Positions 5,802 to 27,030 are shown, counted from the first letter of the stretch. The stretch is DNA of 32,000 bases from Nonlabens ponticola (GCF_003966335.1 NZ_CP034549.1:360001-392000); one strand, 5' to 3'. Numbers and translations are program-made. Notes: generated from the letters alone by a model not told the origin.

Positions 5802-6301
5802 TGCGCAACTATGTTTACATATGGGGCGTCTTGTGTTTATGTTTGTTGACCAGCTGCGATGACCAACTAGTAGATAGCGACACGGTAACCATAGCTCAAG
5901 GTTCATGGGATTATGACGCGCCAGTTGAGTTTGAAATCACGCCACCAGACAGCATCAATGATTATGATGTATTCTTTTATGTGCGCAATGATCAACAGTA
6001 TGCTTTTAAAAATCTATGGTTGATCAGTCAATTAAAATTTCCAGAAGGAAAAATCGTTACAGATACATTGCAGTACGAGATGGCAGACTCTCAAGGTAGG
6101 TTTTTAGGAACCGGTAAAGATCTGATTGAAAATAAGTTATGGTATAAGAGAGGTGTTAGCTTTCGCGAAAGCGGAACCCACAATCTCACCATTAAACAAG
6201 CTATGAGACGCAATGGTGACGCACAACCACTTGAACAACTGGATGGCGTACTAGACGTAGGTTATATTATTGAAAAACACATGCCCGATGGCAACAACTA
6301 A
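5798..6301 (+). CDS. gldH: Gliding motility lipoprotein GldH
   Basis: 167 aa with lipobox LLTSC. The body (YDVFFYVRNDQQYAFKNLWLISQL...TDTLQYEMADSQGRFLGTG...NKLWYK...LTIKQAMR) resembles F. johnsoniae GldH. The conserved context PSP1-gldH-PBP1A supports the call. Confidence 0.85.
   Translation: MMRNYVYIWGVLCLCLLTSCDDQLVDSDTVTIAQGSWDYDAPVEFEITPPDSINDYDVFFYVRNDQQYAFKNLWLISQLKFPEGKIVTDTLQYEMADSQGRFLGTGKDLIENKLWYKRGVSFRESGTHNLTIKQAMRRNGDAQPLEQLDGVLDVGYIIEKHMPDGNN
6159..6172. repeat. Copy 2 of the iterated palindrome GCTTTCGCGAAAGC
   Basis: Perfect match inside gldH, read in a different phase from the other coding copies: (A)GC TTT CGC GAA AGC gives SFRES within GVSFRESGTH. Confidence 0.95.
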
Positions 6302-8615
6302 AGAACAAAAACAGCGCAAGGAAGATCTCTCTAGAAACATCAAATTATTCTGGAAGATCGTAGCAACAGGTATAGGATTGGTCGTCTTACTATTTGTATT
6401 GACGGGTCTTGGACTTTTTGGATCACTGCCTGATCACACCAAATTAGAGAATCCAGAAACAGACCTCGCGACCGAAATCATATCGGCAGATGGAGAGACT
6501 TTGGGAAAAATATACAAAGACAACCGCACGCCAGTAGATTTTGAGGATCTACCGCAAAATCTCGTAGACGCCCTGGTGTCTACTGAGGATGAACGCTTTT
6601 ACGAACACAGCGGTATTGACGGATATGGAACCGTGCGCGCCGTGGCCTTTTTAGGAAGTCGTGGTGGTGCCAGTACGATCACGCAACAACTTGCTAAAAA
6701 TTACTTTACGGAACGTCCTAGCCAGAATATCGTGGCTCGTATCATCCAGAAACTACAGGAATGGATCATCTCCATACGTCTTGAAAAACAGTACACAAAA
6801 GAGGAAATCATAGCGCAGTACCTCAACCAGATTGACTTCTTGTATCAAGCAGATGGTGTGCGATCGGCTTCACGTATTTATTTTGGCAAAGAACCCAGCG
6901 AGTTGAATGTAGAGGAAAGTGCGGTGATCGTTGCCATGCTTAAAAACCCACGACAGTACAATCCACGTCGTGCCGTGAGTAAAGAGAAGTCGTTGCAGCG
7001 ACGCAATCAGGTATTTGTGCAAATGGTGCGCAATGATAAGATGAGCGAGGCCATGAAAGACAGTCTCAAACAACAGCCTATCAAGCTAGACTATAATCCT
7101 GAAGGTCATAACGATGGTATGGCAACCTATTTTAGAGAATTTTTGCGTGCAGACCTGCGCAAATGGATCAAAGAAAATCCTAATCCAGAAACAGGTGAAC
7201 CCTATGATTTGAGACGTGACGGACTGCGCATCAATGTGACTATCGACAGCCGCATGCAAAAGATTGCAGAAAAAGCCGTGACCGATCACATGGCAAACCT
7301 ACAGGAAGAGTTTGACGATCAGAACAAAAAACTGAGCACGGCACCATTTAGAGATGTAACCGAAAAAGAAATTAATGAAAAGATCATAGCCAGCGCTATG
7401 CGCAGGTCAGACCGTTGGAGAATACTGAAAGCTCAAGGTAAAAGCGAGCAAGAAATCAAGGACAGCTTCCTTGAAAAGACAGACATGACCATCTTTGCTT
7501 GGAACGGCGATATTGATACTGTCATGACACCGGTGGATTCCATAAGATATTATAAAAAATTCTTGCAGGCTGGTATGATGTCACTAGAGCCACAAACAGG
7601 ACATGTTAAGGCTTGGGTAGGTGGTATCAATCACCAGCACTTTAAGTACGACCACGTGAAGAAAGGTAAGCGTCAGGCTGGATCAACATTCAAACCGTTT
7701 TTATATGCAACGGCTATTGATTTGCTGCACTACTCACCTTGTAAAATCTATTCAGATGGTGAGTACACCATTCCAGCAGGTCGTTATGGGTTGAGCAAGG
7801 ACTGGACACCTAGCAACTCCAGTGGTGGCTACGGTAACCTCAAGACCATGAAAGAAGCGCTAGCCAGCTCGACAAATACTATATCCGCACAGTTGATGGA
7901 TGAGGTTGGCCCTCAAGCGGTAGTTGATAGAGCAAAATCCATGGGAATAGATACCGATAATTTTGATGTTACCGTTTCCCTAGCACTAGGAACTGCAGAT
8001 GTTAGTTTATATGAAATGGTAGCGGCATACGGCGTTTTTGCAAACGGTGGTATTTACAACGAGCCAGTATTGGTTACCAGTATTGAAGATAAAAATGGTA
8101 CCGTATTGTTTCAATATGTGCCAGAATCAAAAGATGTCATGAACCCAGAAGTAGCCTACACAACGGTAAAACTTATGGAAGGCGTGGTGCAGTCTGGTAG
8201 CGGCGCGCGTTTGAGAGATACCTGGCGTGGACAACAAGGATATGGCAAAGTGCTTACCGGCTATCCCTATAAACTAGAGAATGATATTGCTGGTAAAACG
8301 GGTACTACCCAAAATAATAGCGATGGCTGGTTCATCGGCATGGTGCCTAATCTTGTGAGCGGCGTCTGGGTTGGTGGTGAAGATCGATCGGTACACTTTT
8401 ATAGTACGACCTATGGTCAAGGTGCTACCATGGCATTACCTATTTGGGGTAGCTTTATGAAAGGTGTATATGCTAATGAATCTTTAGGCATTTCAAAAGA
8501 GCCATTCCCTAAGCCATCTAACTTGTCCATCGAGGTCAATTGTGCGGAGTATGTTGACGGCATGAATAGCAATGACAGTGGCGCAGATGATGGTAGCGAT
8601 CAACTAGACATGTAA
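6270..8615 (+). CDS. mrcA: Bifunctional penicillin-binding protein 1A (GT51 transglycosylase plus transpeptidase)
   Basis: GT51 motifs EDERFYEHSGID and GASTITQQLAKN are present. Transpeptidase motifs are STFKP, SSN-type (SSTN) and KTGTT. The true start may be the second ATG at 6288 (MATTKEQ), which shortens the overlap with gldH. Confidence 0.92.
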   Translation: MKNTCPMATTKEQKQRKEDLSRNIKLFWKIVATGIGLVVLLFVLTGLGLFGSLPDHTKLENPETDLATEIISADGETLGKIYKDNRTPVDFEDLPQNLVDALVSTEDERFYEHSGIDGYGTVRAVAFLGSRGGASTITQQLAKNYFTERPSQNIVARIIQKLQEWIISIRLEKQYTKEEIIAQYLNQIDFLYQADGVRSASRIYFGKEPSELNVEESAVIVAMLKNPRQYNPRRAVSKEKSLQRRNQVFVQMVRNDKMSEAMKDSLKQQPIKLDYNPEGHNDGMATYFREFLRADLRKWIKENPNPETGEPYDLRRDGLRINVTIDSRMQKIAEKAVTDHMANLQEEFDDQNKKLSTAPFRDVTEKEINEKIIASAMRRSDRWRILKAQGKSEQEIKDSFLEKTDMTIFAWNGDIDTVMTPVDSIRYYKKFLQAGMMSLEPQTGHVKAWVGGINHQHFKYDHVKKGKRQAGSTFKPFLYATAIDLLHYSPCKIYSDGEYTIPAGRYGLSKDWTPSNSSGGYGNLKTMKEALASSTNTISAQLMDEVGPQAVVDRAKSMGIDTDNFDVTVSLALGTADVSLYEMVAAYGVFANGGIYNEPVLVTSIEDKNGTVLFQYVPESKDVMNPEVAYTTVKLMEGVVQSGSGARLRDTWRGQQGYGKVLTGYPYKLENDIAGKTGTTQNNSDGWFIGMVPNLVSGVWVGGEDRSVHFYSTTYGQGATMALPIWGSFMKGVYANESLGISKEPFPKPSNLSIEVNCAEYVDGMNSNDSGADDGSDQLDM

Positions 8616-8619
8616 CAAT

Positions 8620-9333
8620 ATGTTGCAACGGTTATCCATACACAACATTCTATTTCTCGATATCGAGACGGTACCTCAGCAAGAAGATTTTAAGGATCTA
8701 GATAAAATTGATCAAGAGCTATTTGCTCAAAAAACACAATACCAGCGAAGAGACGATAAAACTCCTGAGGAATTTTATGATCGTGCTGGCATCTGGGCAG
8801 AGTTTGGCAAAATCATATGTATCTCTGTAGGTTACTTTAGTGAGAAGACAAGTAACAGCAGTTTTAGGGTGCGCAGTTTCACTGGTGAAGAACGAGACAT
8901 CTTGATGGATTTCTCCGCACTTCTTGAGGAGCATTTCTCTAGACGCGATCATTTGTTGTGCGCCCATAATGGCAAGGAATTCGACTTTCCTTACATAGCG
9001 AGACGATTGGTCATTCATGGATTGCCATTACCGGTAAAGCTCAATTTGTTTGGTAAAAAGCCATGGGAAATACCGCACCTTGATACGATGGAGCTGTGGA
9101 AATTTGGCGACTACAAACATTTTACCAGTATCAAATTACTCACGAGAGTGTTGGGCGTACCATCGCCCAAAGATGATATAGATGGCTCGCAGGTACGAGA
9201 TGTATTCTATAAAGAGAATGACATTTCCCGCATCGCGACCTACTGCGAGAAAGATGTAATTGCAGTCGCCCAAGTGCTGTTGCGTATGAGGAACGAGCCA
9301 CTGCTTAAAGACAGCGATATTGTCATCAAATAA
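8620..9333 (+). CDS. DnaQ/RNase H-fold 3'-5' exonuclease (PolB-exonuclease-like)
   Basis: Has an ExoI-like LFLDIETV (DxE) motif, an ExoII-like HNGKEFDFPY motif and a C-terminal YCEKDV motif. It starts 5 nt after the PBP1A stop. Confidence 0.7.
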   Translation: MLQRLSIHNILFLDIETVPQQEDFKDLDKIDQELFAQKTQYQRRDDKTPEEFYDRAGIWAEFGKIICISVGYFSEKTSNSSFRVRSFTGEERDILMDFSALLEEHFSRRDHLLCAHNGKEFDFPYIARRLVIHGLPLPVKLNLFGKKPWEIPHLDTMELWKFGDYKHFTSIKLLTRVLGVPSPKDDIDGSQVRDVFYKENDISRIATYCEKDVIAVAQVLLRMRNEPLLKDSDIVIK

Positions 9334-11011
9334 TCCCATAGTTGAAGTTCAAGGCTTGAACCTAAGTTTTTCAACGAACCATGGTAGCATTCAAGTACTT
9401 CATGATGTGTCGTTCGATCTTCATCCTAACGAGATACTAGCCATCGTTGGTGAGTCTGGCAGCGGTAAATCTGTTACCAGCAAGGTGCTCATGGGCTTGT
9501 TACCAGAGAAAATTACTCAAATAGACTGCAGGAAACTAGAGGTACAACAGAATGATATTAGAGATTTTAAGGAGCGTGATTGGTCTCGCTTTCGCGGAAG
9601 CGTCATCTCAATGATCTTTCAAGAACCTATGAGCAGCCTGAATCCTACTATAACTTGTGGACAACAGGTGGCTGAGATACTGAAAATCCACACTTCACTT
9701 AACACACTACAACGCAAGACTGAAGTTCTTGAGCTTTTTGAAAAAGTAAAATTGCCAGAACCTGAAGTCACCTATAAAAAATATCCACATGAGATAAGTG
9801 GTGGCCAGATGCAACGTGTGATGATCGCGATGGCAATTGCCTGTAAACCTAAAATCCTAATTGCAGATGAGCCAACGACGGCGCTTGATGTGACTGTGCA
9901 GCAAGAAATCTTGATGCTACTCAAGGAATTGCAGGCAGATTATGGTATGAGCATGATTTTTATATCGCACGATCTAGGTGTGGTAAAATCCTTTGCAGAT
10001 CGTATTCTGGTGATGTATCAAGGTAGGATTGTAGAATCCGAGACAGCCACAAATATTTTTGAAAATGCACAACACGACTACACAAAAGCTTTGATCAACT
10101 CAAGACCTGATCCCGAGCAGCGCGTGAAACGACTGCCTACCATTACTGACTTTTTAAATGATACTGTAAAATCTGTTTATGAAGATGTATCAAAACGTCA
10201 TGAGCGATTGTCAATCATGTATGATAAGGCGCCCGTCCTAACAGTGGAAAATGTAGTAAAGGACTATCTAGGCAATAGAAACTCGGTTTTTGGTAAACGA
10301 TACATGTTTAGAGCGGTCGACCATGTGAGTTTTGAGCTGTATCCACAGGAAAGTCTAGGTGTTGTGGGCGAGAGCGGTTGTGGAAAGAGTACTTTAGGTA
10401 ACATGATCACTGGCTTGCGTGATGCCACCAGTGGTAGTATTAGGTATCACGGTACTGATCTATCACAACTATCCCAAAAAGACTGGCGTGCCTATCGTAA
10501 GGATATCCAGATCATTTTTCAGGATCCATTTGCGTCACTCAATCCTAGAATAAAAATAGGTGAAGCAATCATAGAACCCATGCAGATTCATGGGATAGGA
10601 AGCAACCATAAAGAGCGTAAAAAGATGGTGGAAAAGCTCCTAGAACAAGTAGGTCTAGAGGCATCACATTATGATCGATACCCACATGAATTTAGTGGTG
10701 GTCAACGTCAACGTATAGGCATCGCCCGCACTGTAGCTCTGCAACCTAAAATTATTGTTTGTGATGAGTCTGTGAGCGCGCTAGATATATCAGTACAAGC
10801 ACAAGTACTTAATCTGCTCAACGAGTTGAAGGAATTATATGACTTTTCCTATTTGTTTATCTCGCACGATCTAGCGGTAATAAAATATTTCTGCGATCGA
10901 GTGATCGTCATGAATAAAGGTAAAATTGAGGAAATTCAAGAGGCCGATGCACTGTTTGCAAAGCCTACTTCAACTTATACTAGAAAATTAATTGATTCTA
11001 TACTGCACTAA
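9320..11011 (+). CDS. Duplicated (two-NBD) ABC transporter ATP-binding protein, DppD/DppF-YejF type
   Basis: Two Walker A motifs (GESGSGKS, GESGCGKS), two signatures (ISGGQMQR, FSGGQRQR) and two Walker B motifs (LIADEPTTALD, IVCDESVSALD). The start is TTG at 9320 and overlaps the exonuclease gene by 14 nt. No permease or binding-protein gene is nearby. Confidence 0.9.
   Translation: MSSNNPIVEVQGLNLSFSTNHGSIQVLHDVSFDLHPNEILAIVGESGSGKSVTSKVLMGLLPEKITQIDCRKLEVQQNDIRDFKERDWSRFRGSVISMIFQEPMSSLNPTITCGQQVAEILKIHTSLNTLQRKTEVLELFEKVKLPEPEVTYKKYPHEISGGQMQRVMIAMAIACKPKILIADEPTTALDVTVQQEILMLLKELQADYGMSMIFISHDLGVVKSFADRILVMYQGRIVESETATNIFENAQHDYTKALINSRPDPEQRVKRLPTITDFLNDTVKSVYEDVSKRHERLSIMYDKAPVLTVENVVKDYLGNRNSVFGKRYMFRAVDHVSFELYPQESLGVVGESGCGKSTLGNMITGLRDATSGSIRYHGTDLSQLSQKDWRAYRKDIQIIFQDPFASLNPRIKIGEAIIEPMQIHGIGSNHKERKKMVEKLLEQVGLEASHYDRYPHEFSGGQRQRIGIARTVALQPKIIVCDESVSALDISVQAQVLNLLNELKELYDFSYLFISHDLAVIKYFCDRVIVMNKGKIEEIQEADALFAKPTSTYTRKLIDSILH
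9588..9601. repeat. Copy 3 (degenerate, 13/14) of the iterated palindrome: GCTTTCGCGgAAGC
   Basis: One A-to-G mismatch. It lies in the ABC ATPase gene and reads (C)GC TTT CGC GGA AGC, giving RFRGS, the same phase as the gldH copy. Confidence 0.7.
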
Positions 11012-11211
11012 CGCTTCTCTAAAAAGCGAAAAACGTACGGTTTACTAATTGAACGACACCTTTCACTAGGGTGTAAGTAGCATTGATATTCTTAACGATA
11101 ACTTTCATAAGGGGACAATTGAGATATAAATATCTTAATAAACTCCCAATAAACAGCTAATCGACATCATAAAATCGATGAAATACACTAAAATACTTTC
11201 TATTTTGTTAA

Positions 11212-11850: not shown

Positions 11851-11854
11851 GAGC

Positions 11855-13762
11855 CTATTGTTTTGGTGACCTCGCCGGTAGCTCGATCATATTATTATCG
11901 CCCACTTTTACCATACTATTTCCAGTAATGGTGATTGTTCCTGCGGTAAAGTCATCATCATTTGCCTCGAAAATGTTGTCCACATACTTCTGTGGATTGC
12001 GATCAATGTATGGAAACCAGGTGCTGTGTATTTGTATCATGATGCGATGACCTTTCTTAAAAGTGTGCAACACATCTTGCAACGCAAAATTTACTTGAGT
12101 CTTCTTGCCTTTTTCAAATGGCTCTGGAGTCACAAAACTATTTCTAAAACGTCCTCTAAATGTTTCTGCGCGTACTAGTTGTTGATAACCAGCAAGCGTG
12201 ATATGCTCTGGTGTTTGTGGATCGTTTTTCATATCATTCGGATAGACATCAATGACTTTGACAATGAAATCTGCGTCATCAATATCCTTTAATATGACTT
12301 CAAGATTTGCTTGAATCTCGCCGGATAATCGCTGGTCGTCCTCTAGAATATCTGTAGTAAAAGTAAGTACATCAGGTCGACGTGAGGCATGACGTTGATC
12401 GTCTGTCATATAAGCTCGTGGTGTAAAAGTCACTGGCGTCACCTCACTGCGAAATGGTACTGGTTTCATAGGATCACTGACATAAGAAAACATGGCATCT
12501 TCTTCTACTTCTTCATTGATGGTGAGCTCACCATTTTCTTTAAACCCAAACACGATCTCGTCTTGCTCAGGCGGCCATTTCTCAAATTGCTCCCATTGCT
12601 TGAGACCTGTGTCAAACATGTAGGCTTCTGGTAACTTTGGATTCTTTTTACCCTTTAAGTGGTGCTCAAAGAACGGTGTCTCAATCTGCTTTTGATAAAA
12701 GGTTGACATGCTGTCGCCGTAATAAATATGGTTTACCATTTGAGCGCCGCGCTCGCGTGCCCAATTACCATGGCTCCACGGTCCCATGACGATGGTGTTG
12801 TTTTTATTTTTTGGGTTGTAACGCTCTACATTCTTATAGATCGTTAGTGGCCCATACAAATCCTCTGCATCAAACCAGCCGCCTACGGTCATCACAGCAT
12901 GATCGACATCAGTTAGATGGTTGACAATGGCACGCTTCTGCCAGAATTCGTCATAATTAGGATGTGTGGCAACGTCTTTCCAGAAAAAGTTGTCTGGAAA
13001 AATTTCTTCGGTTACTGTTTTGAGACTTCCTAAACCTAAGTTGAATTGATACGAGTCTTTCAAGTTACCGGCAGCTCTCATGGCATCCCATTTATCTGCA
13101 TACCAGCTTGTGGTAGTAGGTTCTGTCTGGTGACCAAAAACTGGATATGCCATCAAATAACTTTGCAACGTGGCACCATTGTGATGAAAATCATCGAAGA
13201 AAAAATCACCAATAGGTGCCTGTGGAGATGACGCGACTAGCGCTGGATGAGCCTCAGGCAATGCGGCAGCCGTGTAAAAACCTGGATAGGAAATACCCCA
13301 TTGACCTACCTTACCGTTAGTTCCTTTTACGTTTTTGAGCAGCCACTCAATCGTGTCATATGTGTCTGAGCTCTCGTCTATATCTTTTTTATTCTTGACA
13401 TTGTTGCCTGGAATGTGTGGTCGCATGTTATCAAAATCACCTTCACTCATCCATCTACCACGCACGTCTTGATAAACAAATATGTAGCCATCTTCCATCA
13501 TATACTTATTGGGTCCTAAGGATGTCTTGTATTCATCGTCTCCATAGGGTGCGACGCTGTAACAAGTGCGCTGCAACATCATTGGATATTGTTGTGAAGT
13601 ATCCTTAGGCGCATAGACCACCGTGTAAAGTTTGACACCATCGCGCATGGGAATCATGTGGACTTGCTTAGTATAATTTTCAGTTACATAGGTTTGTTGG
13701 GATTGCGCTTTCGCGAAAGCGTAACCCATAACAATCAATAAACACGTGACAAGATTTTTCAT
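11855..13762 (-). CDS. Secreted CocE/NonD-family serine hydrolase (S15 X-Pro dipeptidyl-peptidase-like)
   Basis: 635 aa with signal peptide MKNLVTCLLIVMGYAFAKAQ. The N-terminal block is IPMRDGVKLYTVVYAPKD...YPMMLQRTCY and the nucleophile elbow is WGISYPGF. The large C-terminal beta-sandwich region is typical of PepX_C. Confidence 0.85.
   Translation of the reverse strand: MKNLVTCLLIVMGYAFAKAQSQQTYVTENYTKQVHMIPMRDGVKLYTVVYAPKDTSQQYPMMLQRTCYSVAPYGDDEYKTSLGPNKYMMEDGYIFVYQDVRGRWMSEGDFDNMRPHIPGNNVKNKKDIDESSDTYDTIEWLLKNVKGTNGKVGQWGISYPGFYTAAALPEAHPALVASSPQAPIGDFFFDDFHHNGATLQSYLMAYPVFGHQTEPTTTSWYADKWDAMRAAGNLKDSYQFNLGLGSLKTVTEEIFPDNFFWKDVATHPNYDEFWQKRAIVNHLTDVDHAVMTVGGWFDAEDLYGPLTIYKNVERYNPKNKNNTIVMGPWSHGNWARERGAQMVNHIYYGDSMSTFYQKQIETPFFEHHLKGKKNPKLPEAYMFDTGLKQWEQFEKWPPEQDEIVFGFKENGELTINEEVEEDAMFSYVSDPMKPVPFRSEVTPVTFTPRAYMTDDQRHASRRPDVLTFTTDILEDDQRLSGEIQANLEVILKDIDDADFIVKVIDVYPNDMKNDPQTPEHITLAGYQQLVRAETFRGRFRNSFVTPEPFEKGKKTQVNFALQDVLHTFKKGHRIMIQIHSTWFPYIDRNPQKYVDNIFEANDDDFTAGTITITGNSMVKVGDNNMIELPARSPKQ
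13707..13720. repeat. Copy 4 of the iterated palindrome GCTTTCGCGAAAGC (16-bp palindrome 13706..13721)
   Basis: Perfect match, translated on the minus strand as AFAKA in GYAFAKAQSQ, the signal-peptide cleavage region of the S15 peptidase. Confidence 0.95.
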
Positions 13763-13782
13763 AAGAGTATTTTATCGTGCAC

Positions 13783-13790
13783 TAAAGATA
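13783..13790 (-). promoter_or_regulatory. Near-consensus -7 box (TATCTTTA) for the S15 peptidase-def operon
   Basis: Minus-strand TATCTTTA matches 7 of 8 positions of TAnnTTTG, about 21 nt upstream of the ATG at 13762. Confidence 0.3.
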
Positions 13791-13801
13791 CAGGATGTAT
13801 A

Positions 13802-13830
13802 TAAAAAAGCCTCTCTTAACGAAAGGCTTT
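13802..13830 (-). terminator. Rho-independent terminator after the BNR-repeat gene
   Basis: The stem AAGCCT/AGGCTT (13807..13812 and 13824..13829) is followed on the minus strand by a T-run (TTTTTTAT). It lies about 67 nt downstream of the stop at 13896. Confidence 0.55.
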
Positions 13831-13895
13831 GATCACTGTAGAGCAGCTCTCCTGCGCGGCATCATATGTGCCAGCATGAGTAATACTTTGTTTTA

Positions 13896-17237: not shown

Positions 17238-17261
17238 ACAGTGACTTCCTGACTTGAAGGG

Positions 17262-17269
17262 CAAATTTA
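17262..17269 (-). promoter_or_regulatory. -7 promoter element TAAATTTG (TAnnTTTG) for the BNR-repeat gene
   Basis: Exact consensus on the minus strand, 25 nt upstream of the ATG at 17237. It lies inside the longer tracked ORF, which supports the shorter start. Confidence 0.45.
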
Positions 17270-17335
17270 GCGATACCAACCACCTCAAAATCATGCTATT
17301 CTATCGCAGGTAGATAAGTTGGGTCAACCGTTTGT

Positions 17336-17379
17336 TTAAACGATTAAACGCACCCATTCAATCGCGTTAAATCGTTTAA
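17336..17379. promoter_or_regulatory. 16-bp imperfect inverted repeat (TTAAACGATTAAACGC ... GCGTTAAATCGTTTAA) built from four TTAAACG-like half-sites; candidate operator
   Basis: Arms at 17336..17351 and 17364..17379 match 15 of 16 positions, with a 12-nt spacer. It lies about 100-140 nt upstream of the BNR gene start, and no T-run follows on either strand. Confidence 0.35.
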
Positions 17380-17490
17380 GTCTCCATTACGCAGGCTTGT
17401 TTTAAGGCTAAAACGCCCTATTTACAGCTATTGTGGTTCATTGGACACTTGGGTCACTGGTCGATGTATTTGATATTTACTAGATACAAA

Positions 17491-17982
17491 TCACCTTTTA
17501 AGTGTAGATTTAAAAGTGGTATCCCAAGAGGCCTTCAATTGAGTGACTTCATTCATGTTATCGTTGGGAACCGTAGGTGACAACACATAATGAGCAATTT
17601 TATAGACACCATCCTGTTGATACATAACACCACTACCTCGACAAATTCCCATTTGCGTATCCAGCAATTCATCAAAATATATCACGCCTGATCGTTCATA
17701 GATATTACGTTCTAGGGATGTAAAAGACCAGGCTTTTCCCTTGTCAAAATATGGTTTTGAAAAAGCTTTAAATTCTTCTAGTTGCCAGTTCTCACTGGCG
17801 TCGGTGCCTATGAAAACTGCATCGCTAGTCATTAAATTAAAATATGCATCAAAATCTGCGGACGATGCCGCAGCATGCCAATTGTCGATTTGCTGGGACA
17901 CTTCATCTTTATTGATGTTTTGATAACTGGAACACGCCGTAAGTAATATAATAGCCAGTAAAAAGATTGCTTTTTTCATCAT
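17491..17982 (-). CDS. NTF2-like (SnoaL/DUF4440-type) lipoprotein
   Basis: Lipobox LLTAC. The sequence IDNWHAAASSADFDAYFNLMTSDAVFIGTDASENW and the overall ~160-aa size fit the NTF2-like fold family. Confidence 0.65.
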   Translation of the reverse strand: MMKKAIFLLAIILLTACSSYQNINKDEVSQQIDNWHAAASSADFDAYFNLMTSDAVFIGTDASENWQLEEFKAFSKPYFDKGKAWSFTSLERNIYERSGVIYFDELLDTQMGICRGSGVMYQQDGVYKIAHYVLSPTVPNDNMNEVTQLKASWDTTFKSTLKR

Positions 17983-18008
17983 CGATAATTTTCAAGGAAG
18001 GTAATTAA

Positions 18009-18599
18009 ATGTACCTTGACATCACAATGAAAACAACACATCCATCTAAATGTGCGTGGTGTCTTGGCGACCCACTTTATGAGCAGTATCATGATCAGGA
18101 ATGGGGCGTACCTATTCATGAGGATCGCGCCTTGTTTGAGTTTCTTATTTTAGAAACCATGCAAGCAGGTTTGAGCTGGATCACTATTCTCAAAAAGCGC
18201 AATAATTATCACGATGCACTTGACCAATTTGACTATCATAAAATTGCGAGATACAACGATGATAAGAAGGTTGAGTTGCTCAATAATGCTGGCATAATAA
18301 GGAATAAATTGAAAGTCAACTCGATCATAAACAACGCACAAGTATTTATAGAAGTTCAAAAGGAGTATGGTAGCTTCTCCAAGTTTTTATGGAAGTACGT
18401 AAATGGCAAACCCATTAAAAATAACTGGAATGACTTGAGTGAAGTGCCAGCAACAAGCTCAATTTCTAATCAACTCGCCAAGGACTTAAAAAAGCTAGGG
18501 TTCAAATTCATAGGTAGCACGACGGTTTATGCTTTCATGCAGGCAGTAGGTATGGTCAATGATCACGTGGTAACATGTTATAGGTATGATGAATTATAG
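18009..18599 (+). CDS. tag: DNA-3-methyladenine glycosylase I
   Basis: CAWCLGDPLYEQYHDQEWGVP...ETMQAGLSWITILKKRNNY...GSTTVYAFMQAVGMVNDHVVTC aligns closely with E. coli Tag. The start may be the ATG at 18027 (MKTTHPS). Confidence 0.9.
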   Translation: MYLDITMKTTHPSKCAWCLGDPLYEQYHDQEWGVPIHEDRALFEFLILETMQAGLSWITILKKRNNYHDALDQFDYHKIARYNDDKKVELLNNAGIIRNKLKVNSIINNAQVFIEVQKEYGSFSKFLWKYVNGKPIKNNWNDLSEVPATSSISNQLAKDLKKLGFKFIGSTTVYAFMQAVGMVNDHVVTCYRYDEL

Positions 18600-19176
18600 A
18601 TTATCGATGGTGGTTGTGGTGGTGTTAGCTTTCGCGAAAGCGTATTCCCAAAAATCCTCTACCACAAACCAAAAGGTCGAGCAAGAATCCAGAATAGCAT
18701 TAGAACAAATGGACGATGCAGCTCGCATTCTCATTGTTGAACTAGGCGCTACACCGTCCAGAACCAAGCTCTATGAAGAGCAAGATGGCAGCAAAAAATC
18801 ATACGAGGCAAAATTCAAAGTGAACCGAAAGAAATACAGTGCAGAATTTGATCGCAACTGGCAACTAGAAGATGTGGAAATAAAATCTACACGCCGATCT
18901 ATAGACAAGAAATTGTGGCGATCCATAAACTCACAATTGGACACGATGGCTCGCAAGTGGCGACTAGAAAAAATGCAGTTACAGTATCTGCCTTCTAGCG
19001 ACGTACGGCAACTCAAGCAAAAAATTAGCTCAAAACAATTTGATAACCTGGAACTTATAGTAGCATTCAAGAATAACAAGGCAGTTTATAGAAAAGAGTT
19101 ACTGTTTTCAAGCCGAGGTAAATTATTGAGTCAACGAGATATCAAAAGACGCAGATATGATTTCTTGTTGTTCTAA
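18586..19176 (+). CDS. Secreted hypothetical protein (possibly PepSY-like repeats)
   Basis: Signal peptide MMNYRLSMVVVVVLAFAKAYSQ. Repeated segments of the type YEAKFKVNRKKYSAEFDRNWQLEDVE resemble PepSY-like modules. The family assignment is weak. Confidence 0.55.
   Translation: MMNYRLSMVVVVVLAFAKAYSQKSSTTNQKVEQESRIALEQMDDAARILIVELGATPSRTKLYEEQDGSKKSYEAKFKVNRKKYSAEFDRNWQLEDVEIKSTRRSIDKKLWRSINSQLDTMARKWRLEKMQLQYLPSSDVRQLKQKISSKQFDNLELIVAFKNNKAVYRKELLFSSRGKLLSQRDIKRRRYDFLLF
18628..18641. repeat. Copy 5 of the iterated palindrome GCTTTCGCGAAAGC
   Basis: Perfect match, translated on the plus strand as AFAKA in VVVLAFAKAYSQ, a signal-peptide cleavage region. Confidence 0.95.
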
Positions 19177-19825
19177 ATTGCTCATACTCGCGGTTCTTAT
19201 CCTGTCCGGAGTTGCACATGCACAAATTGTGGATCAGGTAATCGCCCAGCCTGCGATCGTTCTTTCCTACCGCGATGTACCAGCGTGGAAGTTTAATACG
19301 GTCCTACAGCAACGCAATGTAGTTTATGATCAGACTAGTGCACTGCACATCCAAATCGCACAGTTCGCCAGCCGTGAAATAGGTTTTTATAGCGAGATAG
19401 GTGCTGGAATCATGTATAGGCAAGGTCTAGAGTCCAGCGTACGAGACGAGCTGCGCACCACAGAACAATACGTCCACGCTCGCAAATACAATAACTTGAA
19501 ACTAGCCCATAGATTGCGATGGGATCAGCGATGGCGTGACGAGGATTTGACTCATCGCTGGAGATACAGATTATCAGGATCCATGCCGCTAAACGGTCGA
19601 GAAACTAATGTGTCTGAGTTCTATGCGACTGCTAGTGCCGAGGCACTTTTTATTGCCGAAAATAAAGAGCGACCAGCTTACGACCAGCGATTAAGTCTAG
19701 GAATAGGAAGACAATTGGGGAAAAAATTAAAAGTGCAATTGACCTCACAGTACAGATGGGAAGATTATACGGCAATAAATAGGCGATCTCTATTTCTCAA
19801 TCTATCGCTGTATCATACGCTATAA
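19157..19825 (+). CDS. DUF2490-like outer-membrane hypothetical protein
   Basis: Signal peptide LILAVLILSGVAHAQ. The R/W-rich strands (HRLRWDQRWRDEDLTHRWRYRLSGSMPL) and the ~220-aa size are reminiscent of DUF2490. It overlaps the upstream gene by 20 nt. Confidence 0.55.
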   Translation: MISCCSKLLILAVLILSGVAHAQIVDQVIAQPAIVLSYRDVPAWKFNTVLQQRNVVYDQTSALHIQIAQFASREIGFYSEIGAGIMYRQGLESSVRDELRTTEQYVHARKYNNLKLAHRLRWDQRWRDEDLTHRWRYRLSGSMPLNGRETNVSEFYATASAEALFIAENKERPAYDQRLSLGIGRQLGKKLKVQLTSQYRWEDYTAINRRSLFLNLSLYHTL

Positions 19826-20464
19826 GAAGGATAAAAACACCTCGCGATCCATGGTGACAGCGCCTAGACTGTGCAAGTGATCGTTGTAAAGTTGTGCATC
19901 GATGAGTTGGTAATCTTTTTGTTTCAATGTTTTGACGAGGTGCCACAAGGCGAGTTTACTGGCATCAGTAGCCTTAGCAAACATACTCTCGCCACAAAAG
20001 ACTCCTTGCTCTTTCAAATCTACACCGTACAAACCACCAACTAGTTCCTTATCGAGCCAGACCTCGACACTAGCAGCATGTCCCAGCTCGTGCAATTGAG
20101 TATATGCCGCGATCAAGTCATCGTTGATCCATGTACCCAAGTCGCCGTTCCTGGAAACATTCATGCAACAAGTCATTACACGAATAAAGGACTGATTCAT
20201 GGTAATGCGATAGTTGCGGTTGCGCCCACTTTGCCTGAGCGACTTTGAAACTTTCATAGGTTGATCCTTACGCAGATCAAACACCATACGTGGATCTGGG
20301 CTCCACCAACAAATGGGATCATTGTCATCGTACCATGGGAAAATACCATTGTTATAAGCCAGCAACAATCGCTCTACACTCAGGTCACCACCTATCGCTA
20401 GCAGGCCATGAGCATCTGCGGTATGTGGATCTGGAAAACTGAGTTCTTGAGTTAATAATTGCAT
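19820..20464 (-). CDS. aat: Leucyl/phenylalanyl-tRNA--protein transferase
   Basis: FPDPHTADAHGLLAIGGDLSVERLLLAYNNGIFPWY...GGLYGV...FCGESMF are hallmark Aat blocks. Confidence 0.9.
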   Translation of the reverse strand: MQLLTQELSFPDPHTADAHGLLAIGGDLSVERLLLAYNNGIFPWYDDNDPICWWSPDPRMVFDLRKDQPMKVSKSLRQSGRNRNYRITMNQSFIRVMTCCMNVSRNGDLGTWINDDLIAAYTQLHELGHAASVEVWLDKELVGGLYGVDLKEQGVFCGESMFAKATDASKLALWHLVKTLKQKDYQLIDAQLYNDHLHSLGAVTMDREVFLSFL

Positions 20465-20488
20465 GTGTAATAATTAGAATCTACCGTT

Positions 20489-20527
20489 TAAAACAAAAAT
20501 CAACCCTAGAACATTCCAAGGTTGATT
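20489..20527 (-). terminator. Rho-independent terminator after the DUF3127 gene
   Basis: A perfect 8-bp stem AATCAACC/GGTTGATT (20498..20505 and 20520..20527) is followed on the minus strand by TTTTTGTTTT. It lies 28 nt downstream of the stop at 20555. Confidence 0.6.
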
Positions 20528-20554
20528 TTCGATATTTGTAAACCTATTGGTCTT

Positions 20555-20923
20555 TTAGAACGGTAGATCGTCGTGATCCTCATCCTTACTATTACTTATC
20601 GGGTCGTACTCATCAAACGGTGGTACCTCAGCCGCTGGTGCACCAGCACCTACTTTTTCAATACGCCATCCAGCGATCGAATTAAAATATTTGGTTTCAC
20701 CTTGTGGACTTTGCCACTCACGACCGCGCAGATTGATACCTACTTTTACCGTATCGCCTACGTTAAAGGCATCTAGCAAACCTGTTTTATCCTGCACAAA
20801 TTCAATCATGAGGTGCTGTGGATACTGCTCTTCAGTGGTTACAACGAGCTCACGTTTTTGAAAACCGTTTGAGCCGTAAGACTTTGTTTCTCCTACTAAT
20901 TTGATCTTTCCTTGAACTTCCAT
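20555..20923 (-). CDS. DUF3127-type OB-fold protein with an SSB-like acidic C-terminal tip
   Basis: 122 aa. The N-terminal ~95 aa (GKIKLVGETKSYGSNGFQKRELVVTT...GDTVKVGINLRGREWQSPQGETKYFNSIAGWRIEK) fit DUF3127. A Pro/Ala linker follows, and the terminus is EDHDDLPF. Confidence 0.7.
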   Translation of the reverse strand: MEVQGKIKLVGETKSYGSNGFQKRELVVTTEEQYPQHLMIEFVQDKTGLLDAFNVGDTVKVGINLRGREWQSPQGETKYFNSIAGWRIEKVGAGAPAAEVPPFDEYDPISNSKDEDHDDLPF

Positions 20924-20925
20924 AA

Positions 20926-21777
20926 TTATTGTAATAAAATTTTCCAGGCGTCCAGCATGTGACCGTTTGCGATCAATGTTTTCGCCATTTTGTGTTTGTC
21001 TATTTGTTTGAGATTGTATGTGTTGTTAGCTTTCGCGAAAGCTTGCACCTCATCAACCTCTGGTACTTCCTTTACATTTCCTAGTTTGCCCAGATCATTA
21101 CCAGACAAGATCTCGCTATCTCTTGCGTGATCTGGCAGTGCGTCCACGCCTACTCCTTTATCACGCAGTGGTTTTGCTACTTCAAACATAGCGTCTTTTG
21201 AACGGCAATACCAGTTGCCACCCATGCGCGCCACGGTATCGATTTTAAAAGGGTCAATATCGTTATTCTCATCGAGAATCTCATCATCAACATGCACATG
21301 CTGCACCTCACAGAAAATGAGGTTTCCAGCGCCACCTTGTTGACCCATTTCCTTGATCTCGATCACGTTGCACTCAAATTGCACAGGACTTTCTGCCACT
21401 CGTGGTGGTTTCACGCTCACACTGTCACGTGCTGTGAGACCCGATTTAATAAATTCATTGACGCCGGTATCATACTCGGTACTAGCAAGTGACATTTGCT
21501 GTACCAGATCATAGTTGACCACATTAATGACGATCTCACCAGTCTCACGTGCGTTTTCCAGCGTGTCTTTGGTCGTGTTATCGCGCATGCGGCGCAACGG
21601 ACTAAACACCAGTACTGGCGGATTTACACTCAACACATTATAAAACGAATATGGCGATAAATTTACCTTGCCATCCTTATCTACTGTACTTGCAAAAGCG
21701 ATGGGACGCGGCTGCACAGCGCCAGCAAGTATGCCATACAACTGCGATGATTCAACGTCTTGTGCCTTTATTTCCAT
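20926..21777 (-). CDS. Flavin reductase family protein (FMN-binding split barrel)
   Basis: LYGILAGAVQPRPIAFASTVDKDGKVNLSPYSFYN is a typical Flavin_Reduct block. I prefer the ATG at 21777 (MEIKAQD) over the tracked start at 21849. Confidence 0.8.
   Translation of the reverse strand: MEIKAQDVESSQLYGILAGAVQPRPIAFASTVDKDGKVNLSPYSFYNVLSVNPPVLVFSPLRRMRDNTTKDTLENARETGEIVINVVNYDLVQQMSLASTEYDTGVNEFIKSGLTARDSVSVKPPRVAESPVQFECNVIEIKEMGQQGGAGNLIFCEVQHVHVDDEILDENNDIDPFKIDTVARMGGNWYCRSKDAMFEVAKPLRDKGVGVDALPDHARDSEILSGNDLGKLGNVKEVPEVDEVQAFAKANNTYNLKQIDKHKMAKTLIANGHMLDAWKILLQ
21029..21042. repeat. Copy 6 of the iterated palindrome GCTTTCGCGAAAGC (16-bp palindrome 21028..21043)
   Basis: Perfect match, translated on the minus strand as AFAKA in DEVQAFAKANNTY, near the C-terminus of the flavin reductase and not in a signal peptide. 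Confidence 0.95.
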
Positions 21778-21911
21778 AGGTTTAAGCAAGATTACAAAGG
21801 TATGATTATTCAATTGCTCTTGCAACGGGAATGAACTAGGCTTGAGCAACTTTTGAAACCTAAACGCGTTGTGTGATAAGTTGTATTTTTATTTAAATTC
21901 TAAGTACCTGC

Positions 21912-23060
21912 ATGAACTTCACACCCAATCGCAATGTCATAAGATGGATGGTCATCGTATTCTCTGTGGTAGTGACAAGCTTCATCCTTTGGAACACCTA
22001 TATCTTTTTTCAAAAACTCAAGGAGTCTGAACGTAAAAACATTCAGGAATATGCTGTTGCTATAAAGGATCTGGCCAATCAGCCTATTGACGCAGATCTA
22101 GGTGAACTAGGTATTATTGTTTCTGGAAATACGACTGGTGTTCCATTAATCCAAGAAAATTATAAAGGCGAACTAAGCGCTCGTAACCTTCCCGAAAAAA
22201 CACTCAACGATAGCTTAAAACTGCGTGAACTCATAGAAGATTATAAGCAGGTAAACGAACCCATAGTCACCATGTTTAACGGCAAACCTTTTACCACAAC
22301 CTATTATGGCAATAGCGAGGTAGTAAAAAAGATCAAATACTATCCTCTAGCGTTATTGTTGATCATGTTTCTGTTTGGTGCGGTGATCTTGTTTTTTTAC
22401 AGATCCACAAAAGCTGCCGAACAAAACAAACTGTGGGCTGGAATGGCCAAGGAAAGTGCCCATCAAATTGGTACACCGCTATCATCGCTAGTAGGCTGGA
22501 CGGCCATCCTGAGAGAAAGCGATATTGATCCCACTTATGTAGATGAAATGGATAAGGACATAAGTCGCTTACAAATGATCACAGATAGGTTTTCTAAAAT
22601 AGGATCAGTACCCAAATTATCTGCGGTTGATATAGTTCAAGAAACTCGAGACGCCACGCAATACATCATGTCTCGATCTTCAAAACTGATAAAATTTGAA
22701 ATAAACCTGCCTGAAGAGAATATTATTGTAGATCTAAACAGTCAGCTGTATGCATGGGTTATAGAAAACCTGATCAAAAACGGCATAGATGCCATGAAAG
22801 GAAAAGGCTCCATAAAGGTCGCTTTAACCTCTAATGAATCAAAGGTTTTTATAACCGTTAGCGACACTGGAAAAGGAATACCCAAGCGACTAAGAAAGCA
22901 GGTTTTCACACCAGGCTTCACTACTAAAAAACGTGGTTGGGGTCTAGGTTTATCACTAGCGCAGCGCATTATTAGTGATTATCACAACGGTAAAATGCGC
23001 GTTAGAGACAGTAAAATCAATCACGGAACCACCTTTGAAATTATGCTGCGCAAGGCATAA
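21912..23060 (+). CDS. Membrane sensor histidine kinase (orphan)
   Basis: Two TM helices, an H-box ESAHQIGTPLSSL, an N-box NLIKNGIDAM, a G1 box DTGKGI and a G2 box GWGLGLSL. No response-regulator gene is adjacent. Confidence 0.85.
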   Translation: MNFTPNRNVIRWMVIVFSVVVTSFILWNTYIFFQKLKESERKNIQEYAVAIKDLANQPIDADLGELGIIVSGNTTGVPLIQENYKGELSARNLPEKTLNDSLKLRELIEDYKQVNEPIVTMFNGKPFTTTYYGNSEVVKKIKYYPLALLLIMFLFGAVILFFYRSTKAAEQNKLWAGMAKESAHQIGTPLSSLVGWTAILRESDIDPTYVDEMDKDISRLQMITDRFSKIGSVPKLSAVDIVQETRDATQYIMSRSSKLIKFEINLPEENIIVDLNSQLYAWVIENLIKNGIDAMKGKGSIKVALTSNESKVFITVSDTGKGIPKRLRKQVFTPGFTTKKRGWGLGLSLAQRIISDYHNGKMRVRDSKINHGTTFEIMLRKA

Positions 23061-23112
23061 AAAAAGTCTCTCGATTGAAAAGCTTTTTTGAAAATATTTT
23101 AATCATAATAAA

Positions 23113-24348
23113 TTACGACACAGCTTTCAACTTTTGGATACCGCTTTTATCTAGCTTTGATTCTGCATAGATTTTTGTAACTCTTAGCTCGTTCTCGCCG
23201 CTACCCGGTAATTCAAACATGGCATCAGTAAGTATTGCCTCACATAACGATCGCAATCCACGCGCTCCTAGCTTGTACTCGATCGCTTTTTGTACGATGT
23301 ATTCCAGCGCACCATCTGTTATCGTGAACGAGATATCATCCATTGAGAATAGCTTCTCATATTGCTTGATGATGGCATTTTTAGGCTCAGTAAGTATGGC
23401 TCTCAAGGTTCCTGCATCCAGCGGATTCATATAAGTCAATACAGGAAGACGTCCGATGATTTCTGGAATCATCCCGAAGTCCTTGATATCCTTAGGAATC
23501 ACATACTGTAATAGATTGTCTTTTTCTACTACCATGTCGTTTGACATACTAGCGCTAAATCCAACGGCCTGCATATTTAATCGCTTGCGTATTACTTTCT
23601 CGATGCCATCAAAGGCACCACCAGCAATGAACAGGATATTCTCTGTATTTACCTCTATAAACTTCTGGTCTGGATGCTTGCGACCACCTTTAGGCGGCAC
23701 GTTCACAACAGTTCCTTCTAACAGTTTGAGTAATCCTTGTTGTACACCTTCACCAGAAACATCGCGTGTGATGGATGGATTGTCACTCTTGCGGGCGATC
23801 TTATCGATCTCGTCAATAAAGACGATTCCTGTTTGTGCCTTCTCTAGATTGTAATCTGCTGCCTGCAACAATCTTGTCAATATACTTTCTACATCTTCTC
23901 CTACATATCCGGCCTCAGTCAACACGGTGGCATCAACAATAGCCAATGGCACATTAAGCATGCGCGCGACGGTTTTGGCAATAAGTGTTTTACCGGTACC
24001 CGTTTGTCCTACCATCATGATGTTGGACTTCTGGATCTCAATATCATCGTCGCTGGATGGCTGCAACAATCGTTTATAGTGATTGTACACCGCAACAGAC
24101 ATTACTTTCTTAGTAAACTCTTGACCTATGATGTACTGGTCTAGAAAATCCTTAATGGCTTTGGGTTTCTTGAGCGTCAAGTCTGCTTTAGAAACGCCTT
24201 GCTCTTCTTCCTTGCCGTCTTCCAGCACAATACCGTGTGCCTGCTCGATACAGCGGTCACAAATATGCGCGTCTAGTCCAGCGATCAGCAAATTGGTTTC
24301 TGCCTTATTGCGACCACAAAAACTACATTCTAATTGTTCTTTACTCAT
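23113..24348 (-). CDS. clpX: ATP-dependent Clp protease ATP-binding subunit ClpX
   Basis: N-terminal zinc finger CSFCG...CDRC, Walker A GQTGTGKT, Walker B VFIDEIDK and C-terminal GARGLRS. Confidence 0.97.
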
Positions 24349-24419
24349 TGGGTTGAGTTTTGCAACACACCTCTAGCCTTTTCATGGCCTGTCGTTGCTA
24401 TGTGGATTGTTGGGATTAC

Positions 24420-24433
24420 GCTTTCGCGAAAGC
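24420..24433. repeat. Copy 7 of the iterated palindrome GCTTTCGCGAAAGC (16-bp palindrome 24419..24434); the only intergenic copy
   Basis: Perfect match in the 100-nt spacer between the clpP stop (24449) and the clpX start (24348). Confidence 0.95.
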
Positions 24434-24448
24434 GGAACCATCAAAAAT

Positions 24449-25132: not shown

Positions 25133-25156
25133 AACTGTAATGATACTTGTTGTTGA

Positions 25157-25196
25157 AGAAAAAAGGCGTTAACTACTTGATAAAAGTTAACGCCTT
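25157..25196 (-). terminator. Rho-independent terminator after tig
   Basis: A perfect 11-bp stem AAGGCGTTAAC/GTTAACGCCTT (25163..25173 and 25186..25196) is followed on the minus strand by TTTTTTC. It lies 25 nt downstream of the tig stop. Confidence 0.7.
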
Positions 25197-25220
25197 AAAG
25201 ATAATCATTAATAAGACGGC

Positions 25221-26549: not shown

Positions 26550-26581
26550 TTATAGACTTTTAACCTGTTTAAATCGGGCTG

Positions 26582-26589
26582 CAAAATTA
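26582..26589 (-). promoter_or_regulatory. -7 promoter element TAATTTTG (TAnnTTTG) for tig
   Basis: Exact consensus on the minus strand, 33 nt upstream of the tig ATG at 26549. Confidence 0.45.
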
Positions 26590-26626
26590 GTGCTTATTTT
26601 ACAGCTAGCAAAGTCATGCAATCTAG

Positions 26627-26974: not shown

Positions 26975-26987
26975 AAGAAGGGTTTTT

Positions 26988-27030
26988 ATAAAAATAGAAA
27001 ATCCGCTAGAGAATGATTCTCTAGCGGATT
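26988..27030 (-). terminator. Strong rho-independent terminator after the FadL-SGNH operon (bidirectional in form)
   Basis: A perfect 13-bp stem AATCCGCTAGAGA/TCTCTAGCGGATT (27000..27012 and 27018..27030) has a 5-nt loop. On the minus strand it is followed by TTTTCTATTTTT. It lies 22 nt downstream of the stop at 27053. Confidence 0.8.

Follow-up and report, generated by a model that had tools for sequence, protein, structure and literature searches.

The 32,000-nucleotide stretch of the Nonlabens ponticola genome that we analyzed (GCF_003966335.1, NZ_CP034549.1:360001-392000; hereafter, the window) contains seven exact copies of a 14-bp palindrome, GCTTTCGCGAAAGC, which start at positions 2787, 6159, 13707, 18628, 21029, 24420, and 30029. 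Dinucleotide-preserving shuffles give an expectation of 0 copies. Relative to base composition, observed copies outnumber expected ones by a factor of more than 1e5, and the copies lie in both coding and non-coding DNA, which is the kind of over-representation that is seen for the highly iterated palindromes of cyanobacteria. The palindrome is a selected or driven word of the chromosome; it is not a protein motif, a terminator, or a known RNA. By analogy with HIP1 (a highly iterated palindrome), with the uptake signal sequences (USS) or DNA uptake sequences (DUS), or with Chi sites, we propose that it may be a "self" tag of the chromosome that is recognized by a protein and maintained by selection. 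We give this reading a probability of roughly 45%. In the literature library that was searched, we found no report of the 14-mer, of iterated palindromes in flavobacteria, or of palindromes in Dokdonia or Nonlabens, and the repeat is apparently undescribed in these genera.

The gene content of the window is flavobacterial (gldH, Por-secretion tails, clpP-clpX, and tig), and its nearest named relatives are other Nonlabens. For instance, ClpX is 92% identical to that of N. agnitus. To see which copies are retained in relatives, we used orthologous loci that were fetched via homologues of GldH and the flavin reductase (L319-L327; L322 and L327 are from N. agnitus, and L326 is from N. spongiae). 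All seven of the testable window copies are found at orthologous positions in N. agnitus. The overall nucleotide identity is ~72%, so the neutral expectation for a conserved 14-mer would be 0.72^14, or ~1% per site.

The copy in gldH (5798-6301, + strand) spans 6155-6176, with its core at 6159-6172, and encodes SFRES at codon 121. It is exact in the window and in five other species, whose GldH proteins are ~50-59% identical to the window protein. It has one synonymous mismatch in L325, and it is absent from L065, which is a metagenome-assembled genome of Nonlabens. Third-codon positions are conserved at 0.90 inside the motif versus a mean of 0.61 for the gene, and the synonymous sites inside the motif are frozen. 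In L065, IKFNEPGEY replaces RFRESGTY, and there is a copy of the palindrome ~60 bp downstream (5438-5451), in the spacer between gldH and the PBP1A gene. The other species do not have this spacer since these genes overlap. This single anecdote may represent compensatory turnover that keeps a copy nearby.

The copy at 2783-2804 (core 2787-2800) lies within the gene at 887-2839 (- strand) and encodes ..VLAFAKA.. from codon 14, in the signal peptide of an M1 peptidase. Orthologous copies are found in the N-terminus of the M1 peptidase in L324 and L325. In N. agnitus, the M1-peptidase gene is absent from this position, and the orthologous copy is intergenic (L322 6710). The copy in the window and the copy in N. 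agnitus are equidistant from a conserved promoter-like element of SCO1, AGGTCGTAA(A/T)TTTGTAA. With the copy at 2787 inside a gene in one species and between genes in the other, the constraint acts on the DNA and not on the protein. The SCO1 element itself, GGTCGTAAATTTGTAA at 2901-2916, is upstream of the SCO1/SenC gene; it contains a Bacteroidetes-type -7 element (TAnnTTTG) and is kept in four species, in every one of which a copy of the palindrome lies ~100 nt upstream of it.

A scan of the window identified a single copy with one mismatch, at 9584-9605 (core 9588-9601), in an ABC ATPase gene (9320-11011, + strand). This form, GCTTTCGCGGAAGC, encodes SRFRGS. The mismatch is an A>G change in a Gly codon (GGA), and it is identical in six genomes: the window, L319 (13783), L321 (13792), L322 (13786), L323 (8826), and L325 (13797). 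In the ATPase, the ..MIFQEP.. segment follows shortly after this glycine, and protein constraint appears to keep this copy one step short of the perfect word.

The remaining copies are also retained in relatives. The copy at 13703-13724 (core 13707-13720) encodes YAFAKA at codon 15 of the gene at 11855-13762 (- strand), in the signal peptide of an S15 peptidase; it is kept with its flanks in L319, L321, L322, and L327, and L047 has an orthologue without the copy. The copy at 18624-18645 (core 18628-18641) encodes VLAFAKA at codon 15 of the gene at 18586-19176 (+ strand), whose product is a 196-amino-acid secreted protein of unknown family; it is kept in N. agnitus (L327 13199) and in N. spongiae (L326 13331). 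The copy at 21025-21046 (core 21029-21042) encodes QAFAKA, on the - strand, at codon 246 of a flavin reductase of 283 amino acids. AFAKA is kept in nearly all of the Nonlabens homologues of the flavin reductase, and N. agnitus has the copy at the DNA level (L327 10736). N. spongiae lost the copy in the flavin reductase, with no obvious replacement nearby. The only intergenic copy in the window, at 24416-24437 (core 24420-24433), is 15 nt downstream of the stop codon of clpP and 71 nt upstream of the start codon of clpX, and the same spacer of N. agnitus has a copy (L327 6737). Finally, the copy at 30025-30046 (core 30029-30042) falls in the gene of an alpha/beta hydrolase (29938-30702, - strand), where HAFAKAE is encoded at codon 221, and it is kept with its flanks in N. 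agnitus (L327 1059). A 16-bp word that stays exact at fixed genomic addresses in different genera, and within genes in whichever frame, is a clear case of a constraint at the level of the chromosome that overrides the choice of synonymous codons and even of amino acids.

As these examples illustrate, AFAKA recurs: three of the window copies with AFAKA are in signal peptides, at codons 14-15 (the M1 peptidase, the S15 peptidase, and the secreted protein of unknown family), and another two, in the flavin reductase and the alpha/beta hydrolase, are close to the C-terminus. A copy lies 5-23 codons from the start codon for 3 of the 7 exact copies in the window and for 13 of the 61 AFAKA-frame copies in a broader sample of the clade (described below; among the matches listed). 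These positions are what would be expected if AFAKA were merely a favored site for signal peptidase, written in preferred codons. But the palindrome occurs in three frames as well as in intergenic DNA, the same codons are used at synonymous sites across species, a site that lies in a gene in one species lies outside any gene in another, and the flanks are kept in intergenic copies. Convergence at the protein level is refuted by the spread over frames and by the intergenic copies, and we consider it to be almost inconceivable. A literature search on AFAKA returned unrelated papers only.

The initial annotation had argued that the flanks are conserved as DNA regardless of reading frame, and this conclusion holds, as the flank signal is present in all three frames and at the intergenic copy. 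It also read the frames correctly: two secreted proteins have VLAFAKA, GldH has GVSFRESGT, and the copy between clpP and clpX is intergenic. The flanking words that it reported are there as well: GGTGTTA at 6152, at 18621, and as the reverse complement at 2801-2807; GTTGTTA at 21022; GGAACC at 6173 and 24434; GGAACT, reverse-complemented, at 30023-30028; GTAACC at 13721; and GGATTGC at 13700. GGATTAC is also present, at 24413-24419, which is one nucleotide away from the position given (24412).

To quantify the flanks in the window, we considered 14 half-sites, two for each exact copy. T is at -3 in 12 of the 14 half-sites (p = 2e-5) and A or C is at -1 in all 14 (p = 6e-5); also, G is at -6 in 12 and at -7 in 10. 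From -18 to -4, C occupies just 2 of 210 positions (21% expected, p = 7e-19), and G and T together occupy 169 of the 210. The flank signal is real, and it reaches beyond the ~27 bp that had been suggested.

We then scanned for the 14-mer more broadly, using one genome per species. This yielded 8-kb blocks, 120 of them among the matches listed, and all of the results for this clade sample refer to those matches. Most of the blocks were from Dokdonia, Nonlabens, or other Flavobacteriaceae, often with 2-3 copies per block, and the remaining blocks had single chance matches in unrelated phyla. From Dokdonia, Nonlabens, and related genomes, we built a logo of 149 copies, or 298 half-sites. In these half-sites, C fills position -1 in 80% (90% in intergenic copies), A fills -2 in 43%, and T fills -3 in 70% and -4 in 58%. 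C makes up only 2-8% of positions from -4 to -18, versus a background of 19%, and this depletion fades out toward about -30. There was no flank signal at the 29 chance copies from unrelated phyla. The commonest flank, T-N-C|core|G-N-A (with TAC, TCC, TGC, or TTC), accounts for 57% of half-sites. Had the logo been uninformative beyond the core, the initial claim would have been refuted, but positions -1 and -3 are clearly informative. As had been claimed, the recognized unit extends past the 14-bp core and is roughly palindromic: it is a 16-bp palindrome, CGCTTTCGCGAAAGCG, which is weakly extended to ~22 bp (T-N-C ... G-N-A). The proposed GTTA flank is not the consensus, as it is peculiar to the window, whose copies alone give GG-N-K-T-N-M as the flank of this lineage.

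Outside of the full word, we found no enrichment for CGCG, TCGCGA, TTCGCGAA, or lone half-sites. Because the internal words of 4-8 nt are not independently enriched, a methyltransferase with a short site cannot by itself define the palindrome. We also rejected a short restriction-type site as the explanation, given that neither internal words nor half-sites are enriched on their own. The exact two-fold symmetry and the lack of enriched lone half-sites are why we suspect that a dimeric, sequence-specific protein would recognize the palindrome in double-stranded DNA.

Beyond the palindrome, ~18-30 nt on each side is strand-polar. On both strands, the 5' flank is rich in G and T but poor in C, and the 3' flank is rich in A and C but poor in G. 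The arms of a given copy beyond +/-4 are no more complementary than the arms of different copies (as judged by shuffled pairings), and weak covariation keeps -1/+1, -2/+2, and -4/+4 complementary (p = 0.002-0.03). This covariation would fit a hairpin or cruciform, formed in RNA or in single-stranded DNA, that acts as a signal for RNA stability or processing, as a terminator, or as a signal for replication or priming. Every copy's core can fold as a stem of 5-6 bp with a CGCG loop, and the copies are ~2-3-fold enriched between genes. We nevertheless think that such a structure is improbable: complementarity of the arms stops at +/-4, folding z-scores are just -0.2 to -2.3, the 3' side is A/C-rich without a T-tract, no Rfam family matched at its gathering threshold anywhere in the window, and most copies are inside open reading frames (ORFs), with no fixed position in the transcript. 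Also, as mentioned above, the copy at 2787 lies in a gene in the window, while its N. agnitus orthologue lies between genes. A long hairpin at individual copies is rejected by the lack of arm complementarity beyond +/-4, the modest covariation, and the weak folding z-scores of the DNA. An intrinsic terminator is rejected as well, since the 3' flank is A/C-rich and no copy coincides with any of the 26 terminator-like sites in 12001-32000; even the copy between clpP and clpX lacks a T-tract.

How did the copies arise? The initial annotation had proposed a palindromic mobile element of ~26-27 bp, similar to a miniature inverted-repeat transposable element (MITE), a repetitive extragenic palindrome (REP), or a Rickettsia palindromic element (RPE), that inserts in frame, and it predicted indels of 5-9 codons in alignments of orthologues. 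A palindromic unit with conserved flanks that is found in several frames and between genes is compatible with that model. But the alignments are free of indels at GldH, the alpha/beta hydrolase, and the flavin reductase, which are the three testable copies that are internal to genes. For GldH, there is no indel at the motif relative to 15 homologues or relative to L065: the window has KRGVSFRESGTHNL, the motif-free L065 has KEGIKFNEPGEYLL in the same columns, and outgroups have FKESGTY, FPVTGVY, or FTEKGDY. For the alpha/beta hydrolase, there is no indel relative to 14 motif-free orthologues, which carry HFPNAK in the motif columns (KRHFPNAKIE and similar). And for the flavin reductase, there is no indel among 18 homologues; EVQAFAKANN in the window aligns with EVQSYAKEQK, LEGLLISVS, and others, with outgroup residues such as SYAKE and LLISV. 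Similarly, a pair of loci that are labeled as Aquimarina (L110 and L071) differ by substitutions only, without an indel. Because orthologues with and without the motif share alignment columns with no indel, the copies arose by substitution: they were written by point changes onto pre-existing and partly matching sequence, both coding and non-coding.

Other features of the copies also argue against insertion. They are fixed at orthologous positions instead of being polymorphic, and the flanks beyond +/-4 are compositional instead of being a shared sequence. Decayed copies are almost absent: in 684 kb of the clade sample, there are 151 exact copies, 14 with one mismatch, and 14 with two mismatches, and in loci chosen independently of the motif, the corresponding counts are 38, 8, and 0. 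We saw no REP-associated tyrosine transposase (RAYT) or insertion-sequence transposase in the fetched loci (whole genomes were not searched). With neither the filled and empty sites nor the crowd of decaying copies that mark MITEs, REPs, or RPEs, the palindrome is not a mobile element, and we see hardly any chance for the insertion model. Copies that form by substitution and are held at orthologous positions are instead what is known from highly iterated palindromes.

In the clade sample, 105 of the 151 copies are in ORFs of at least 90 amino acids (61 in the AFAKA frame, 22 in the FRES frame, and 22 in the LSRK frame), and the other 46 are not. Where genes were called, 8 copies out of 42 fall between genes, roughly 2-3 times the share that would be expected for intergenic DNA in such genomes. 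Across samples, the intergenic share is 19-30%. Copies sit where an AFAKA, FRES, or LSRK peptide is tolerated; that is, the word accommodates coding constraints, and not the reverse. Signal-peptide cleavage regions probably suit the palindrome because their codon composition matches the polar flanks: the hydrophobic codons upstream are G/T-rich, the polar codons downstream are A/C-rich, and AFAKA provides an A-x-A site. Annotators should not take recurrent AFAKA, FRES, or LSRK peptides for protein motifs, nor the repeats for mobile elements.

The copies are also evenly spaced. Just 3.8% of 53 distances between neighbors are under 1 kb, versus 27.7% for random placement (p = 8e-6). In the window, the intervals range from 2.4 to 5.6 kb, with a coefficient of variation (CV) of 0.26 (p = 0.001). 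Pooling the window with six other Nonlabens loci gives a mean interval of 3.2 kb and a CV of 0.29, and none of 20,000 simulations was as even. The density is about one copy per 3-4 kb, which extrapolates to several hundred to ~900 sites per genome.

Even spacing is expected if the palindromes are architectural, that is, if a dimeric nucleoid-associated protein, or a protein similar to ParB, Noc, or SlmA, uses them to organize or mark the chromosome via loop anchoring, occlusion, or compaction. The exactness of the 16-bp palindrome, the lack of enriched lone half-sites, and the retention of positions whatever their coding context fit this idea, as does L065, which has no copy in gldH but has an intergenic one ~60 bp downstream. 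Also, a role in nucleoid structure has been proposed for HIP1 (PMC5861425). On the other hand, the extrapolated number of sites is 10-100 times that of the known sets of parS, Noc-binding sites (NBS), SlmA-binding sequences (SBS), or matS; by direct comparison, the TTTC-GC-GAAA spacing is unlike the TTTC-N4-GAAA of parS and NBS; no candidate protein has been identified; and the polar flanks are not predicted. Overall, we consider an architectural role to be somewhat unlikely.

The palindrome has a limited distribution. It is abundant in Dokdonia and Nonlabens (among the matches listed). Across 80 metagenomic loci that are syntenic around ClpX (with ClpX at 61-84% identity), we found zero copies, even if one mismatch was allowed. 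Typical exact copies, flanked by C...G, are also found in L071 and L110, which are labeled as uncultured Aquimarina (there are two in L110), and single copies are found in Leeuwenhoekiella (L030, L112) and in Altibacter and a Flavobacterium sp. (L101, L107). The taxonomic range may be wider than Dokdonia and Nonlabens, or these labels may be loose.

Within Nonlabens, there is no copy in two 10-kb gene islands, positions 1-10000 of L319 (Nonlabens sp. Hel1_33_55) and positions 1-10000 of L321 (N. marinus). Both lie upstream of the conserved PSP1-gldH block, and their content varies from one species to the other. Among their products are helicases, GIY-YIG nucleases, a D12 methyltransferase, and ORC/Cdc6-like proteins, and they resemble inserted defense or mobile islands. 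Neither of two cultured lytic phages of Nonlabens, P12024S and P12024L, has a copy within two mismatches, and a BLAST search with a 38-nt consensus against cultured phages gave chance matches only. Among phage-type contigs of matching G+C content from IMG/VR, some have 2-3 copies per ~12 kb, including copies inside head, portal, and protease genes. In P12024S, several short words are rare: GGCC occurs 0 times (32 expected), CCGG occurs 2 times (32 expected), and CGCG occurs 9 times (43 expected), and the chromosomal loci do not show this. This is a classic signature of restriction avoidance, and it covers the central CGCG of the motif. Another word, TTCGAA, is strongly under-represented in the window, in L319-L327, and in this phage: relative to expectations from base composition, the window has 0 instead of 10, the Nonlabens loci (119 kb) have 3 instead of 38, and P12024S has 1 instead of 12. 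This suggests that a restriction system specific to TTCGAA is widespread in the clade.

Could the word be functionless, and be kept by neutral molecular drive, such as sequence-biased repair, short-patch conversion, or a bias in uptake alone? The origin of copies by substitution, their location where the protein tolerates them, and their absence from inserted islands are all in line with drive, and USS or DUS can in principle accumulate this way (PMC1939737). However, a repair bias would need to recognize 16 bp, and shorter internal words are not enriched. Simple mutational bias would not produce the deficit of close neighbors or the low CV of the spacing. Lytic phages, which replicate in the same host, have neither copies nor near-copies, and exact copies far outnumber those with one mismatch. 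We think that drive alone is quite unlikely.

We return to the possibility that the palindrome tags the chromosome as self. It would mark chromosomal DNA for uptake and/or for recombinational processing. We suggest this because it is found on the chromosome and on some phage-type contigs; because it is absent from islands, lytic phages, and sister genera; and because it has a Chi-like density and is evenly spaced. The polar flanks might be related to processing. RecA-type proteins favor G/T-rich DNA, and if processing starts or halts at the motif, then the G/T-rich side on each strand would be the future 3' tail; this is speculation. An alternative speculation is that the polar flanks could reflect a gradient of C>T changes in exposed single strands. 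At least one member of the Flavobacteriaceae prefers its own DNA during transformation (PMC7965970).

A more specific proposal, which we make with less confidence, is that this would be the first system of the USS or Chi type in Bacteroidota and the first palindromic tag. Under this proposal, a dimeric protein would read the 16-bp palindrome and its polar flanks and so mark self DNA for uptake, recombination, or protection, and selection would fix codons and shape signal-peptide cleavage sites across genera.

Several observations weigh against the self-tag reading. We know of no recognizing protein, methylation, competence phenotype, or uptake bias in Nonlabens or Dokdonia. The uptake sequences and Chi sites that are known are short, asymmetric words, in contrast to this 16-bp palindrome, and the density is 3-4 times below that of USS or DUS. 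The absence from lytic phages is weak evidence, because a 14-mer is not expected by chance and the phages also avoid CGCG. The pooled intervals that show even spacing are partly non-independent, since several of the Nonlabens loci are orthologous. The polar composition of the flanks lacks a demonstrated explanation. Finally, an architectural DNA-binding role, which is the main rival, fits the even spacing and the conservation of positions equally well.

If the palindrome is a tag for uptake or recombination, then sequence-specific recognition of self DNA extends to marine Bacteroidota, and the word could provide a practical handle for the genetic manipulation of these hard-to-transform bacteria.

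The window also contains a few features that are distinct from the palindrome. Between the convergent genes at 26627-26974 and 27053-28576, there is an inverted repeat (27000-27030) with a perfect 14-bp stem and T-tracts on both strands; it is likely a bidirectional intrinsic terminator and unrelated to the motif. The second of these genes (- strand) encodes a run of eight Asp residues (27899-27922) in a predicted secreted protein, whose orthologue is annotated with a faint match to GDSL lipases. Also, the C-terminus of the PSP1-domain protein (gene 4479-5801) is a long low-complexity tail that is rich in Lys, Arg, Asn, and Ser (5500-5801).

How does the palindrome compare to known systems? 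REPs, bacterial interspersed mosaic elements (BIMEs), MITEs, and Rickettsia palindromic elements are dispersed short palindromic repeats too, and the Rickettsia elements can lie in frame within genes. But REPs, MITEs, and the Rickettsia elements are inserted, which leaves indels relative to empty sites, and they decay into many variants, whereas here we found no indel and almost no variants. Also, REPs are extragenic and are associated with RAYTs, while 70-80% of the copies of this palindrome are genic.

Like this palindrome, parS, the NBS of Noc, the SBS of SlmA, and the matS of MatP are perfect palindromes (12-16 bp in their case) that are scattered regardless of genes, and they are bound by dimers. 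However, they number tens of sites per genome, instead of several hundred, and parS and NBS have TTTC-N4-GAAA instead of TTTC-GC-GAAA.

Chi sites, which are recognized by RecBCD or AddAB, have a similar density (in E. coli, there is one per ~4.5 kb). As with Chi, the palindrome behaves as a self marker, is absent from the lytic phages, and is G/T-rich on whichever strand would form the 3' tail. Unlike this palindrome, Chi sites are 5-8 nt, asymmetric, strand-skewed with replication, and recognized as single-stranded DNA. A perfect 16-bp palindrome has no orientation and hence cannot be an asymmetric, orientation-skewed word of the Chi type.

The USS of Pasteurellaceae and the DUS of Neisseriaceae are closer in their genomic signature. 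As here, a USS core is adjoined by flanks with biased composition. USS and DUS are clade-specific dialects with hundreds to thousands of copies; they arise from point mutations in sequence that was already there, occur in excess outside coding DNA, have a biased frame inside genes, and are reported to be evenly spaced (PMC1939737). Our palindrome shares this signature: it is clade-specific, arises by point mutation, is in excess in non-coding DNA, has a frame bias, and is evenly spaced. But USS and DUS are asymmetric 9-12-mers, at about one per kb, and forms with one mismatch are common, whereas the word here is perfectly palindromic, recurs about once per 3-4 kb, and has very few mismatched forms.

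HIP1 (GCGATCGC) and the other highly iterated palindromes of cyanobacteria are also palindromic words that are hugely over-represented in one clade (PMC4390886, PMC5861425, bioRxiv 10.1101/2024.09.10.611283). Conservation of HIP1 extends to copies inside ORFs and to copies between them, and HIP1 recurs quasi-periodically (PMC5861425); methylated HIP1 raises transformation (bioRxiv 10.1101/2024.09.10.611283). As with our palindrome, HIP1 is found in genes, in all frames, and in spacers; it spread by substitution instead of transposition; it is kept at orthologous sites; it is non-randomly spaced, with palindromic extensions possible; and its function is unsettled, with possible links to transformation or recombination. 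The palindrome from Nonlabens differs in that it is from Bacteroidota, is unrelated in sequence, has 16 bp instead of 8, and is ~5-10 times less dense. In further contrast to HIP1, its internal words of 4-8 nt are not enriched alone, its flanks are strongly strand-polar, and no cognate methyltransferase is known. It therefore offers a second and independent system, beside HIP1, for asking what iterated palindromes do, and its longer word should make it easier to fish out the protein that reads it.

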